NCBI RefSeq assembly: GCF_003018255.1
Contig: NZ_CP027440.1
Reading direction: 5' to 3' (one strand)
Length of the DNA stretch: 64,000 nt
DNA from: Escherichia coli
Lineage (GTDB): Bacteria; Pseudomonadota; Gammaproteobacteria; Enterobacterales; Enterobacteriaceae
Shown: one piece after another, positions 6,001 through 9,000 of the stretch
Layout: every line of letters begins with the position of its first letter
Numbering within the stretch: the stretch's first letter is position 1
Made by a program: the position numbers

Positions 6001-9000
6001 ATTGAGCTTATCGTTGACGATCAGGATTCGCTACATTGCGTAACCATTCGGCGGTAAATTTGCCATCAGATGCATTGGCGAGAATTTCCGAATAGTTGGT
6101 TTTCATCGTGTATTCGGTGCGAGGTAACGCTCCGTTTTTAACCCACTTATGAATTGCAACATTTGACAACCCGCATAAACGGGCAGCGACTGTTTGACCA
6201 CCAACAGCTTTTACTGCGAATTGTATCGGATTCATACTGCTATCCATTAATTTAGTTAACTTCGAGTTAATGTTAACTATTAGCTGACAGTTATGTCAAC
6301 TATGTTTGATAATTAACGTATGGTTAAAAAAGATGAACTAAAAGAAGCGTTCTCAAAGAGACTACTACAGGCATTATTAGATGCAGGTGTGGGCGGACGC
6401 GGTCAGGCTAAGCGGATTCAGAATGCAATGAAACTGCGAGGCATTGATATCTCTGAACCGGGGATCTGGAAATGGCTTAATTCTGCATCAATTCCAGAAA
6501 AAACAAGTATTTTGGCACTTAGTGACTGGCTTTCCGTGAAGCCGGAGTGGTTGGAGTATGGCAGTAACGAGCCATCCGTAAAACAGCGACCTTCTATTCC
6601 AAACGAATCAGAATGGGGTTCCCTTGAAACTTGGGACAGAAATACACCACTACGAGATGATGAAGTTGAGGTGCCATATCTGAAAGACATTGAGTTTGCA
6701 TGCGGTGACGGAAGAGTTCATTGCGAAGATCATAATGGTTTTAAATTACGCTTCTCAAAAGCAACCTTGCGCCGTGTCGGAGCTAACAGTGATGGTTCTG
6801 GTGTGCTTTGTTTTCCGGCTACTGGTGATAGCATGGAACCCGTGATACCAGATGGAACAACAATCGCAGTAGACACAAACAACAAACGTATTGTTGACGG
6901 CAAACTCTACGCCATCGCACAGCCTGGTGTCGGTGATGAAAAACTGAAGCGTATAAAGCTATTGTACAGACGCCCCGGTGGAAAACTAATCATACGCAGT
7001 TATAACAGTGAAGAGTACCCTGACGAAGAAGCAGATACTCAAAGCGTGGAGATTATCGGAAAAGTTTTCTGGTATTCAGTTCTGCTTTAGCCCTCTCCCC
7101 CGGCCTCAGAGCCGGGTTTTTTATTAACCCAGCTAGCCAAAACTCATCTATCCTAGCTTCTATACCCCTTCATACTTGATAACCGTCGCTCACCGAACAA
7201 GCAATAATAATTAACTAAAAATCAAAAACATAGAATGCCTCCACAATAATTTTAACTTTGAGTTATTGACTAACACTAACCAACGGTTAATAATCATTTT
7301 ACCAACAGGTCACCGATAACAACGCGGTCCCAATTGGAAAGCTCTTTAAACAACGTCGAACACTCGACTACGTGGCTGCAAAGCCAGATCGCCCAACCGC
7401 ATAAGCTGTCGGGTGCAATGCCGAAGCAATCATCTCAGGGGAGGCTTCGAGATTGCATCGCCAAAGTTTATTCGGGAGAAATCTATGTCCAGAAAAACAG
7501 AATTTAAAGGCACCGCAGCTTCCCGCCGCAGAGCACACCGGGCTGAGCTTCAGAGTCTGGAGGCATCAAGCGCTGATAAACTGCACCGCCCCACACCTTC
7601 ACGGGTGTACTTACAGTGCAAACGCAAAGCCGCAATGCGAGCTGAAGTAGTCACGATAACGACATTAACCAGAAAATATGAAGGCTCTACTTGTCTTCCA
7701 AACACTGCACTTTACGCAGCTGGCTATCGCAAATCCGGAACAATAACAGCGAGGTGATTGATGACCACGCCTTCAGTTTTGCCGCAAAAATTATGGCGTC
7801 CGCTTGCAGAGATTAAAAACTTCGTTGAAAAAATGCCTGACGGCGTTCGCCTTACGGAAGTTACTAAAAAAGTTAAGACATTTGCCGAACTGTCAGGAAA
7901 GGAGAGAAACCAGCTCATAGATTTTATCGATAAACGGGAAAGCATCATTGTATTTAAGGTCAGAAAAGAAGGTTCTGGTAACGGAGTAACCTTTTTCCGC
8001 CACAAAAAATATGGATATCCCAAGCGGGAAGGAAACGTCACAATCATTAAGGACCTTCAATCAAAATTATGTACCAGATGCGGGCAGACAAAATCAGTCG
8101 ATGATTTTTATTCAGATGCCAGCAAACGTGACGGGAGAGCCATTTATTGCAAGAAGTGCGAATCTGCGATGAAACGCTCACGCAGAGAATGCAACAAATT
8201 AATTCTGCAACAACAGGAACCTGAAATGAATAACCTAAAAGCAGTTTCACCTTCACCAGAAATACTCAGAAAGCAGGCGGAAGAATTGCTGAAAGCCGCC
8301 GAAATTGCGGAGAAAAAACGCCAGGAAGATGATGTATTCAACAAAAAACTTGCGCCCTTAAAACTTGAAATTCTTCAGGCCGCCGGAAAAATGCAGCTTA
8401 AACTGGACGAATTCATCGACTGTATGGATGAAATGAATAAAGCAGTTCAGAAGCTTAAAGAGCTGACCGCCTGATATTAATAAATTGCAACTACCGGAGT
8501 TAACTATGAACGAAACAGAACTGAAGCACATTATCGCCCTGCTTCTGGAAGATGCCAGACAGGTTTATCGACTTAGCCCAAACTCCGCAACGCAGGAACG
8601 CATCCGGATGGCAGAAAAAGCGCTGAAACAGGAGAGTGAAAATAACATATCCGAAGTTAGCGCGAATGGTGAAAATGAAGCAATAGAAATAAACAGCAAT
8701 ATCAGCGACGGCGTAATAGCTTCATCCCACAAGACAATTCTCATGGGCGCACGACTTCTGGAGGTGATTACGAGTGAGCTTGAAAAGAACGGTATCAAGC
8801 CCACCCCTTGTTATTTAGAGTGTGTGTTAAATGTTATTGCTTACTCGATGTTCCGTCGGTGACAGATGAAAGTTTTCGATCAAGGAATGTTTCAAGTGCA
8901 TCGTAAATAATGGAAATCGCCCCAGACGCCTGAGTGACAACCCCGCTGCAACATCCATGTATCAATATCCTCTTTGGCGGACATCGGTTTGCCGATTGCT

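Follow-up and report, generated by a model that had tools for sequence, protein, structure and literature searches.

Background

The immunity switches of the lambdoid phages are built on operators that are common to CI and Cro. In lambda, OR3 auto-represses cI, the cI mRNA made from PRM is leaderless, and the repressor has a self-cleaving S24 domain; the phi80 repressor is cleaved at a Cys-Gly bond, and the operators are 18 bp long in P22 and 14 bp long in 434. Those of 933W are 15-bp rotationally symmetric sequences that were defined by footprinting and in vitro selection, and the same work cautions that affinity does not follow from a match to the consensus (PMC3317979). The oL region of 933W has only two sites (PMC5977221). 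In a Pfam-based survey of the CI proteins of Stx phages, an Eru4-associated Clade III was described as being without a helix-turn-helix (HTH) and of unknown regulatory function (PMC8951638).

The window, which is the whole 64-kb stretch of DNA that was analysed, holds a Stx1 prophage of the POCJ13/75-02 type. Its immunity module contains five conserved sites with the consensus TTAACY-N3-RGTTAA which, judging from sequence and placement, are most likely the CI sites that keep the Stx prophage silent. Operators are not discussed in the POCJ13 papers that were searched, and a full-text literature search with six of the site sequences matched no paper.

Related loci and weight matrix

The sample of relatives consisted of 44 IMG/VR loci of 6.7 kb with cI identities from 100% down to 36%. 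The loci were retrieved with two N-terminal-domain peptides, SEPGIWK among them, and the recognition helix is common to all sampled loci because such peptides were used. A weight matrix, partly independent of the window, was trained on the relatives only, with the 100%-identity group excluded; its outer positions (1-5 and 11-15) carry 1.0-2.0 bits of information each, and its central positions (6-10) 0.24-0.58 bits. Footprints with Yersinia phage YP3 (cI 49% identical) and Pseudomonas phage U6 (39.5%) were discarded as uninformative, because the N-terminal domains differ and the palindromes in the control regions are unrelated. A word-indexed protein search with the N-terminal domain as query returned only seven short fragments, which were useless for alignment. 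Background on the activation of PRM in 933W was taken from PMC5977221, PMC4848623 and general knowledge.

Organization of the immunity module

The immunity module (6004-7335) has the order cro, oR, cI, terminator, oL (Table 1). The cro and cI genes are divergent, and three oR sites lie within the 84-bp gap between them, where they overlap the predicted PR and PRM; in oL, two strong sites overlap PL and a weak candidate lies upstream of them. An ATG at 6247 is an unlikely start for Cro, and close relatives carry the 228-nt form of the gene (PGAP). Cro is 37% identical to 933W-type Cro (BLASTP, E 2e-16) and was assigned to PHROG 35, transcriptional repressor, and its Pfam match to YdaS_toxin (27 bits) falls under the 30-bit cut-off. 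The first gene of the PL operon is named an N-like antiterminator in the annotation of POCJ13 as well. This immunity region was found in about 13-15 of 5426 E. coli genomes.

Table 1. Genes, predicted promoters and operator sites of the immunity module, in window coordinates
Feature	Position	Strand	Matrix score (bits)	Description
cro-like gene	6008..6235	-		75 aa, start MNPIQ; stop codon included; from ORF list
OR1	6256-6270		14.2	TTAACTTCGAGTTAA; perfect 6-3-6 palindrome nearest cro
Predicted PR	6270..6299	-		TTGACA (6299-6294), 18-nt spacer, TAACAT (6275-6270); toward cro
OR2	6280-6294		14.6	TTAGCTGACAGTTAT; within PR spacer, contains predicted PRM -35
Predicted PRM	6284..6313	+		CTGACA (6284-6289), 18-nt spacer, GATAAT (6308-6313)
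OR3	6313-6327		17.3	TTAACGTATGGTTAA; over cI start codon
cI repressor gene	6320..7090	+		256 aa; HTH N-terminal domain (predicted), linker, S24 C-terminal domain
Intrinsic terminator	7099..7126	+		3' of cI; CCCGGC...GCCGGG followed by T-run
Weak candidate for a third oL site, or an isolated half-site	7211..7225		7.1	TTAACTAAAAATCAA; 41 bp upstream of OL2 centre
OL2	7252-7266		14.7	TTAACTTTGAGTTAT; last T is first base of PL -35
Predicted PL	7266..7294	+		TTGACT-17-AATAAT; toward N
OL1	7276-7290		17.9	CTAACCAACGGTTAA; between PL -35 and -10
N-like antiterminator gene	7485..7757	+		First in PL operon; Pfam N_peptide E 7.7e-26

The initial annotation had proposed an operator motif in two copies, one on either side of cI, that agree at 13 of 15 positions. 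Both copies (OR1 and OL2) were found exactly where it had placed them, and the count is correct because they differ only at positions 8 and 15. The left-hand copy does meet the promoter reading toward N, with one base in common with its -35 hexamer. The motif itself therefore stood, but the set of two did not: there are five sites, and OR2, OR3 and OL1 had been missed. A further sequence at 6273-6287 (TTAACTATTAGCTGA, two mismatches) was rejected as a site; it overlaps OR2, and its TTAACT reads TTATAT or TTAATT in relatives.

Within oR, OR1 lies directly downstream of the PR -10 hexamer and covers the predicted PR start, its centre being 24 bp from that of OR2. OR3 shares the final base of the PRM -10 hexamer and runs across the predicted PRM start into codons 1-3 of cI (ATG GTT AAA). 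OL1, which has the highest matrix score in the window, is likewise centred 24 bp from OL2. The PR hexamers are kept in relatives and are placed as in the promoter annotated in the 933W-type record, and the same holds for the PRM -10, which reads GATAAT or GATACT; the PL hexamers are almost fully invariant across 35 distinct oL sequences. A consensus promoter scan alone was not significant (5 sites versus 3.1 +/- 2.0 in shuffles). The cI mRNA is probably leaderless, because the ATG of cI follows 7 nt after the end of the PRM -10 and no Shine-Dalgarno sequence precedes it.

Comparison with the 933W switch

Judged from sequence, the switch is an evolutionary relative of that of 933W, with the same geometry and a different half-site, and the POCJ13-type switch is no new type of system. 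Both have 15-bp rotationally symmetric operators. The 933W-type records annotate OR1-3 and only OL1-2, and their oR spacing of 15-9-15-17/18-15 is that found here. OR1 of 933W is annotated at the position matching OR1 of the window, its OR2 (TGAACTGAAAGTTTT) aligns with the window OR2, and its OR3 (CGTACTCATGGTTCA) covers the ATG of cI in an identical register; both proteins begin with MV. In both switches OR2 is enclosed by PR, and PRM extends from within OR2 to OR3; OL1 and OL2 are 24 bp apart, OL2 abutting the -35 and OL1 lying between it and the -10.

The half-sites, TTAACY in the window and CGTACT/CGAACT in 933W, have the inner ACT/AGT in common but differ in the outer three bases. Positions 2-5 read T-A-A-C, whereas those of the 933W immunity group read G-T-A-C, and the prophage falls outside that group by this measure; because its half-site differs in this way, it should form a separate immunity group. 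The protein differs correspondingly in the residues aligned with the 933W contacts: S41, K42 and E51 are E46, P47 and A56 here, and only K46 (K51 here) is retained. Relative to 933W, helix 2 and the turn of this repressor have five extra residues, and the cI C-terminal domain is unrelated to that of 933W and phi80-like.

Site enrichment and conservation among relatives

The 13/15 identity of the two sites first noticed was by itself only modestly unusual: among 300 dinucleotide shuffles of the intergenic DNA on both sides of cI, 13 reached it. A search of the whole window, of the kind that the initial annotation had suggested for the prophage, showed a strong enrichment of the palindromic consensus. 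At up to two mismatches, TTAACTNNNAGTTAA gave eight matches in 64 kb where 1.74 were expected, a number reached in none of 100 shuffles, and six of the eight fall inside the two control regions; the element upstream of kilR that had been grouped with the motif was not borne out as related (see below). At up to one mismatch to TTAACYNNNRGTTAA, four control-region sites were present, whereas 5000 shuffles had 0.015 such sites on average and never more than 1. The matrix placed the five sites at ranks 1-5 in the window (14.2-17.9 bits), and the best score outside the control regions was 10.4 bits.

In all 44 related loci, sites are present at -64, -40 and -7 from the cI start, OR1 being at -64/-63 and OR3 being kept at -7, where the coding role of cI codons 1-3 confounds the conservation of its right half. 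OR2 reads TTAACTGACAGTTAT in nearly all relatives. The oL pair lies 923-2518 bp downstream in all but two loci, in which it is missing because they end too early; OL2 was found in 42 of the 42 loci long enough to include oL, and the OL1-OL2 spacing is always exactly 24 bp. No further matches at up to one mismatch were found within the 44 loci of 6.7 kb. In variants with 98.7% identity OL1 reads CTAACCAACAGTTAA or CTAACCAGCAGTTAA, and E. coli prophages of about 72% DNA identity have the same site pattern.

The half-sites are nearly invariant (mean column entropy 0.07 bits in oR and 0.17 bits in oL), whereas the oL centres (1.06 bits), spacers (0.63-0.71 bits) and flanks (0.77-0.96 bits) drift. 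Conservation extends to the centre triplets of the oR sites, probably on account of promoter elements that overlap them. In loci L056-L059 the cI C-terminal domain is a different one, yet the N-terminal domain and the operators are retained, and on these sequences operator specificity tracks the N-terminal domain. No covariation of N-terminal-domain variants with operator variants was visible among the relatives, because the recognition helix is invariant in this peptide-retrieved sample.

These data bear on whether the resemblance between the sites is due to chance or to AT-rich promoter DNA, TTAACT resembling a -35 and GTTAAT a -10 hexamer, with no dedicated operator involved. The modest shuffle result for the 13/15 identity fits such an origin, as do the 71% A+T content of the oR region and the contact of the sites with promoter hexamers. 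The same AT-rich DNA, however, hardly ever yields such sites once shuffled, and OR1 lies downstream of the PR -10, where promoter elements are not expected. Conservation is dyad-symmetric with freely varying oL centres, the promoter hexamers form conserved blocks of their own, and the footprinted 933W system has an identical layout. An origin by chance or base composition is accordingly regarded as extremely improbable. The proposal that the motif marks the repressor recognition sequence is upheld in qualified form: from promoter position, dyad symmetry, conservation and the 933W-like layout it is very probably the sequence recognised by CI, and by Cro, and would therefore set the immunity specificity of the prophage.

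The CI repressor

The N-terminal domain of cI (approximately residues 1-82) is 33% identical to that of 933W cI (BLASTP, E 1e-13). A Pfam search for HTH families with residues 1-90 gave no match even at E<=10, so that cI receives no HTH_3/XRE assignment, whereas the 933W N-terminal domain in the same search matched HTH_3 at 1.3e-6. The single full-length sequence had no match to solved structures at E<=0.01, but a profile search of these found the P22 c2 N-terminal domain at E 5.5e-6 and the 434 repressor at E 3.5e-3. These are the nearest solved relatives by profile and have the five-helix fold in common with it, while their N-terminal domains are only about 20-25% identical to that of cI and their operators are different. 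The AlphaFold2 model of the domain (pLDDT 83.8) has helices at 4-22, 29-39, 46-53, 61-70 and 75-80, and its best Foldseek matches were the TP901-1 CI, P22 c2 and lambda cI N-terminal domains (TM about 0.73), with weak E-values, none being <=0.001. Homology and model together indicate a predicted HTH N-terminal domain in spite of the Pfam result, and the protein is most likely a member of the 'HTH-less' Eru4-associated Clade III.

The C-terminal domain matched Peptidase_S24 (Pfam, E 3.9e-16) and is 70% identical to that of phi80 cI. The match to phi80 begins with the linker at residue 67, includes EFACGDG and GDSMEP and is confined to residues 67-255; the N-terminal domains are unrelated. The phi80 operators (NC_021190) are 19 bp long and differ in sequence and placement, and the prophage does not fall into the phi80 immunity group. 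The S24 features read from the sequence are Cys128-Gly129, Ser171 and a catalytic Lys210 or Lys213. These residues (C128-G129, S171, K210 and K213) are invariant in an alignment of close E. coli relatives, and C128 varies in a wider alignment that adds a Pseudomonas phage homologue. With Peptidase_S24, a Ser/Lys pair and a Cys-Gly site, cI is by sequence a predicted self-cleaving S24 repressor of the LexA/CI kind.

It might be supposed that the operators are real but are read by Cro or another factor rather than by the CI of the window. The Pfam result would allow this, as would the description of Clade III CI proteins as lacking an HTH and having no known regulatory function (PMC8951638), and Cro is clearly an HTH protein. 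The supposition is nevertheless quite unlikely to be right. The CI N-terminal domain is homologous to a 933W domain for which DNA binding is experimental, its profile matches the P22 c2 and 434 repressor domains, and its model has the five-helix repressor fold. The putative recognition helix, (S/T)EPGIWKW, does not vary among relatives that share these half-sites, including those with an exchanged C-terminal domain, an invariance partly built in by retrieval with SEPGIWK. It is also general knowledge that CI and Cro of lambdoid switches share their operators, and CI is retained here as the probable reader of the sites.

Proposed mechanism and comparison with lambda

It is considered highly probable that a five-site CI switch of 933W geometry and TTAACY specificity explains the module at 6004-7335. 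In such a switch, CI dimers, and by analogy Cro, would recognise the 15-bp dyad operators TTAACY-N3-RGTTAA, CI doing so through its HTH N-terminal domain with the predicted recognition helix E46-PGIWKWL-53. Occupation of OR1/OR2 and OL1/OL2 would shut off the two lytic promoters, and binding at OR3 would auto-repress cI. RecA-stimulated self-cleavage of the S24 domain at Cys128-Gly129, as part of an SOS response, would lift repression and lead to expression of Stx1. CI binding itself is inferred in this scheme, as are an order of affinities, any cooperativity and any activation of PRM from OR2; simple lambda-style geometry would be inapplicable to such activation, because OR2 covers the predicted PRM -35.

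With lambda the module shares a divergent cI/cro pair around a three-part OR, PL operators downstream of cI, adjacent site centres 24 bp apart and a predicted S24 self-cleaving C-terminal domain, together with the proposed auto-repression of cI through OR3 and a probably leaderless cI mRNA. The sites are 15 bp long versus 17 bp in lambda, and the operators are shifted by about 24 bp relative to PR, which places OR1 at the start and OR2 within the spacer. The PRM -35, which in lambda adjoins OR2, is overlapped by it here; about 57 bp separate the predicted starts of PR and PRM, versus 82 bp in lambda; and there are two clear OL sites instead of three.

A lambda-like third oL site at 7211-7225 would permit OL-OR looping, cooperative filling of OR3 and lambda-like behaviour. 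Its score ranks 19th among about 64,000 positions of the window, many relatives also carry the left half TTAACY at -41/-42, and an additional strong site, scoring 14.5 bits in L026, is found in some relatives 19 bp upstream of OL2. The cI C-terminal domain resembles that of phi80 and not that of 933W, so the non-cooperativity of 933W need not apply here. On the other hand, the right half of the candidate is degenerate and unconserved (-2.4 to 7.1 bits across relatives), the window has no site at the -19 position, and the homologous oL of 933W has two sites only (PMC5977221). A functional third site is for these reasons held to be unlikely, and a five-site switch is preferred.

The element upstream of kilR

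The initial annotation had also described a related palindrome at 9120-9133, upstream of kilR. The sequence (GTTAACTGGTTAAC) is present, but it holds the hexamer GTTAAC as a direct repeat and is not a true palindrome. Its half-sites follow each other with no spacer (6-0-6, versus 6-3-6 in the operators), and the matrix gives it at most 0.8 bits, which is rank 128 in the window, whereas the five sites reach 14.2-17.9 bits. TTAACT and GGTTAA, each a perfect half-site, both occur in it and could be taken as signs of a third operator region that would put kilR under this repressor. Against this stand the spacing and the score. The element also belongs to a conserved block that precedes kilR in Rac and dicB in Qin and is present in 4609 of 5426 E. 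coli genomes; this leader is common to prophages of other immunities with unrelated repressors. In the POCJ13 reference genome, whose immunity is the same, this locus reads GTTAGC. The element also forms a hairpin stem, in which two compensatory changes in Rac preserve pairing, and it lies inside an STnc100-like Rfam match (9024-9167, 31.6 bits, E 2.3e-5) that falls below the gathering score of 47 bits; at the gathering threshold, Rfam gave no match in 5000-10000. The element was rejected as an operator, and control of kilR by this repressor through it would be very surprising.

Implications

Stx1 has been carried into Shigella flexneri, S. sonnei and E. coli by POCJ13 and 75/02-type phages, and the toxin output of these phages hinges on prophage induction. 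The five operators and their consensus provide a testable molecular definition of the immunity group, in terms of mutual exclusion and of promoters for reporters. The group is tied to the 933W paradigm, and published 933W biochemistry can therefore be used as a guide. The impression left by the literature that an Eru4-associated CI clade, of which this CI is most likely a member, has no DNA-binding domain (PMC8951638) is corrected as well. The change from S41/K42/E51 to E46/P47/A56, paired with that from CGT to TTA, amounts to a specificity swap made by nature, and the engineering of repressors could draw on it.

A tentative reading, possible but less probable than its opposite, is that CI is a natural chimera in which a 933W-family DNA-reading head, retuned to TTAACY, is joined to a phi80-type oligomerisation and cleavage domain, with the 24-bp operator spacing kept. 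Were this true, the 'HTH-less' CI clade of the literature would consist of ordinary DNA-binding repressors. If, in addition, the phi80-type domain restores the pairwise cooperativity that the 933W repressor is without, or looping through the weak OL site, the logic of the induction threshold would be unlike the 'hair-trigger' of 933W, and such a threshold would concern the Stx1 phages of Shigella and E. coli that have this type of immunity.

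Predicted operator sites and promoters

The two 15-bp sequences proposed in the initial annotation as a shared repressor recognition motif on either side of cI (OR1 and OL2 in the table) were confirmed in position and in their match at 13 of 15 bases, and the second overlaps a near-consensus promoter reading toward the N-peptide gene, its last T being shared with the -35 hexamer. Taken alone, the 13/15 match is weak evidence, as it was reached in 13 of 300 shuffles; the palindromic consensus (TTAACY-N3-RGTTAA), unlike that match, is not. OR1 is a perfect 6-3-6 palindrome. A search with TTAACTNNNAGTTAA allowing up to two mismatches returned eight matches in 64 kb against 1.74 expected, six of them within the two control regions, and none of 100 shuffles reached eight; with at most one mismatch, four sites were observed against a mean of 0.015 in shuffles of AT-rich intergenic DNA only. 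The operator reading was well supported, and it was extended from the two sites of the initial annotation to five predicted operators, with centre-to-centre distances of 24 bp (OR1-OR2), 33 bp (OR2-OR3), and 24 bp (OL2-OL1). When approximately 64,000 window positions were scored with a weight matrix made from relatives alone, these five sites occupied ranks 1-5 (14.2-17.9 bits), and the best score outside the control regions was 10.4 bits. An apparent site at 6273-6287 was dropped because it was not conserved in relatives. A weak third left-hand site may possibly lie at 7211-7225 (7.1 bits). A further good site, which would be an OL3, lies 19 bp upstream of OL2 in some relatives (L025-L027 and L050; ATAACCAACGGTAAA, 14.5 bits in L026); by matrix scoring, this site was absent from the window and from most other relatives.

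Predicted operators, promoters, and genes of the immunity region
Feature	Position	Strand	Sequence or elements
OR1, predicted operator	6256-6270		TTAACTTCGAGTTAA
OR2, predicted operator	6280-6294		TTAGCTGACAGTTAT
OR3, predicted operator	6313-6327		TTAACGTATGGTTAA
OL2, predicted operator	7252-7266		TTAACTTTGAGTTAT
OL1, predicted operator	7276-7290		CTAACCAACGGTTAA
PR, predicted (consensus scan)	6299-6294 and 6275-6270	-	TTGACA, 18-nt spacer, TAACAT
PRM, predicted (consensus scan)	6284-6289 and 6308-6313	+	CTGACA, 18-nt spacer, GATAAT
PL, predicted (consensus scan)	7266-7294	+	TTGACT-17-AATAAT
cII	5568-5864	-
cro-like gene	6008-6235	-
cI	6320-7090	+	Peptidase_S24 domain
Intrinsic terminator	7099-7116
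N-peptide gene	7485-7757
kilR	9176-9409

The promoter scan alone was not significant (five found against 3.1 +/- 2.0 in shuffles), but the promoters predicted for cro (PR), cI (PRM), and N (PL) are conserved in relatives and coincide with those annotated in the homologous 933W-type record. On these positions, OR1 would lie over the PR start, OR2 would fill the PR spacer and contain the PRM -35 hexamer, OR3 would span both the start of PRM and the ATG of cI, and on the left OL2 would adjoin the PL -35 hexamer with OL1 between the PL hexamers. The PRM GATAAT ends 7 nt before the cI ATG, and a Shine-Dalgarno sequence is lacking, so that the maintenance transcript of cI is probably leaderless, as in lambda. 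Candidate nut sites were noted by eye on both sides: a boxA-like GCTCTTTAA at 7341-7349 on the N side, followed by small hairpins at 7355-7368 and 7375-7386 (GGCTGCAAAGCC), and, on the minus strand beyond cro (~5955-5985), a boxA-like GCTCTTTTC followed by CGCTGAAAAGCG.

Conservation of the predicted operators

All three oR sites are kept in E. coli prophages whose cro-oR-cI DNA is ~72% identical to that of the window (cI protein 72-78%, Cro ~80%); OR2 in these prophages is TTAACTGACAGTTAT, nearer the consensus than the window copy, and variation falls in the 9 bp between OR1 and OR2 and in the PRM spacer. Their oL pair is of the same build, e.g. TTAACCAATGGTTAT-TGACT-gaaa-ATAACCATTAGTTAA-TAATC, and lies at very different distances from cI. 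An IMG/VR scan yielded 44 loci, among which cI identity ranges from 100% to 36%. Sites were present at -64/-63, -40/-39, and -7 from the cI start in 44 of 44 loci, the oL pair was exactly 24 bp apart in all 42 that reached far enough, and no further matches with at most one mismatch were found elsewhere in these 6.7-kb loci. Mean column entropy was 0.07 bits in oR half-sites and 0.17 bits in oL half-sites, as compared with 1.06 bits in oL centre triplets, 0.63-0.71 bits in spacers, and 0.77-0.96 bits in flanks, which indicates constraint on half-sites and promoter hexamers and not on the whole region. In 98.7%-identical variants, the oL changes fall at the centre and at R/Y positions, and the consensus is still kept. 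The centres of OR2 (GAC) and OR3 (ATG region) are near-invariant whereas the oL centres are free, a pattern that fits overlapping promoter and start-codon functions.

Prophage and immunity module

Across 5560-7760 the window matches two Stx1-converting lambdoid phages of Shigella, POCJ13 at 100% identity and 75/02 Stx at 99.9%. This immunity region is present in ~13-15 of 5426 complete E. coli genomes. The gene content around the operators is classical. The immunity module is delimited by mosaic boundaries: on the left, DNA common to other phages (PhiR5_2) stops at ~6003, and on the right, the DNA shared with over 700 E. coli genomes begins only at ~7335. Outside the immunity region the window differs from POCJ13, with GTTAAC in place of GTTAGC within 9120-9133 and CACCGCATC in place of CACCACATC; the sequence therefore belongs to a close relative of POCJ13, for example the prophage of E. 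coli 2014C-3307 (100% identity across 6000-7500).

A perfect 16-bp tandem repeat (TTGGTGTGACTGCACA x2, 5401-5433), located between cII and the beginning of the replication gene, is flanked by a ~50-bp direct repeat (~5349-5400 and ~5440-5490); these repeats may be origin- or iteron-like elements or may reflect a duplication. In a minus-strand ORF (5335-5571) the tandem repeat is translated as QPQQPEADWVNP. The gene after N (7761-8471, 237 aa) had no Pfam match; its product matches PHROG 2539, of unknown function (E 1e-130), and residues 96-188, with CxxC motifs, more weakly match endonuclease VII, HNH, and Lar-like families.

Element upstream of kilR

The sequence described in the initial annotation as a related palindrome upstream of kilR is present (GTTAACTGGTTAAC, 9120-9133), but it was rejected as an operator. 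It is a direct repeat of GTTAAC whose inverted half-sites have no spacer, it scored 0.8 bits (matrix rank 128), and it lies in a conserved leader block (9024-9167; 4609 of 5426 E. coli genomes) that precedes kilR in Rac and dicB in Qin-type prophages, whose repressors are unrelated. POCJ13, as noted, varies within it. The element provides the stem of a hairpin, CGGCGTTAAT...GTTAACGTC(A) (~9110-9136). All pairs of this hairpin are kept in seven variants, Rac showing two compensatory double changes, and the folding energy is unremarkable (z = -0.9). The block also contains a second hairpin (~9138-9152) and gave an Rfam STnc100-like match below threshold (31.6 bits against a gathering score of 47, E 2.3e-5). 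The element is most plausibly a segment of a conserved, putatively transcribed leader and not an operator. Also upstream of kilR, at 8962-9011, a DicF-like stem-loop with a T-run aligns with E. coli S88 dicF; its 5' part is diverged, and it scored 15.8 bits (E 0.55) with Rfam DicF, far under the 48-bit gathering score.

Repressor domains

Over its N-terminal 83 residues, cI shares 33% identity with the 933W-type repressor (E 1e-13), and identity between Cro and its 933W-type counterpart is 37% (E 2e-16). From residue 67 on, cI resembles phi80 cI (70% identity), with EFACGDG (Cys128-Gly129) and GDSMEP among the shared stretches, whereas the N-terminal domain and 19-bp operators of phi80 are unrelated to those of the window. 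By these alignments, cI is a domain chimera of a 933W-like N-terminal domain and a phi80-like linker and C-terminal domain. Cys-Gly, not Ala-Gly, stands at the expected self-cleavage position. Four related loci (L056-L059) have the same N-terminal domain and operators despite a third type of C-terminal domain, so operator specificity would follow the N-terminal domain.

A survey of Stx-phage CI proteins placed POCJ13 and 75/02 in replication type Eru4 and described an Eru4-associated CI clade (III), of unknown function, as one that 'completely lacks the HTH binding domain' (PMC8951638). At a cut-off as permissive as E<=10, residues 1-90 of cI gave no Pfam match, whereas the 933W N-terminal domain matches HTH_3; given this missing HTH match, the window cI likely belongs to Clade III. 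However, a family profile of the N-terminal domain matched those of P22 c2 (E 5.5e-6), TP901-1 CI, and the 434 repressor, and an AlphaFold2 model (pLDDT 83.8) has five helices, helix 3 being residues 46-53 (EPGIWKWL). The best Foldseek matches of this model, at weak E-values, were phage-repressor N-terminal domains (TP901-1 CI, TM 0.73, rmsd 2.1 A; also P22 c2 and lambda cI). Profile, predicted helices, and structural matches together argue for an HTH in cI, and the 'missing HTH' would be a detection failure, not a biological absence.

Comparison with phage 933W

The 933W operators are 15-bp symmetric sites defined by footprinting and in vitro selection (PMC3317979). Records of 933W-type phages annotate OR1 (CGTACT-TTC-AGTACG), OR2 (TGAACT-GAA-AGTTTT), and OR3 (CGTACT-CAT-GGTTCA) as 15-bp sites, and on the left only OL2 (CGTACC-AAT-AGTTCT) and OL1 (CGAACT-ATT-GGTTCA); five natural operators are reported for 933W, with OL3 absent and pairwise cooperativity lacking (PMC3317979, PMC5977221). 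Both systems share a 15-9-15-17/18-15 arrangement, OR3 across the cI ATG in the same register (both repressors start MV), OR2 enclosed by PR with PRM running from inside OR2 to OR3, and OL2 adjoining the -35 hexamer with OL1 between the hexamers, 24 bp from OL2. Work on 933W shows that the affinity order of its operators is not readable from consensus match (PMC3317979), and by this precedent neither would be that of the window sites.

The outer half-site bases differ, being TTA in the window and CGT/CGA in 933W. The 933W model assigns the reading of positions 2-3 to S41 and K42, of positions 4-5 to K46, and of position 6 to E51 (PMC3317979); the aligned window residues are E46, P47, K51, and A56, so that the residue reading the shared A-C is kept whereas those reading differing bases are replaced. 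From these residue and half-site changes we infer a consistent account of the change in specificity, on which the window phage and 933W are predicted to be heteroimmune. The switch appears to be a new and uncharacterised addition to the 933W-type lambdoid switches; its interest is moderate and lies chiefly in Stx-phage biology and in the specificity swap that it naturally exemplifies.
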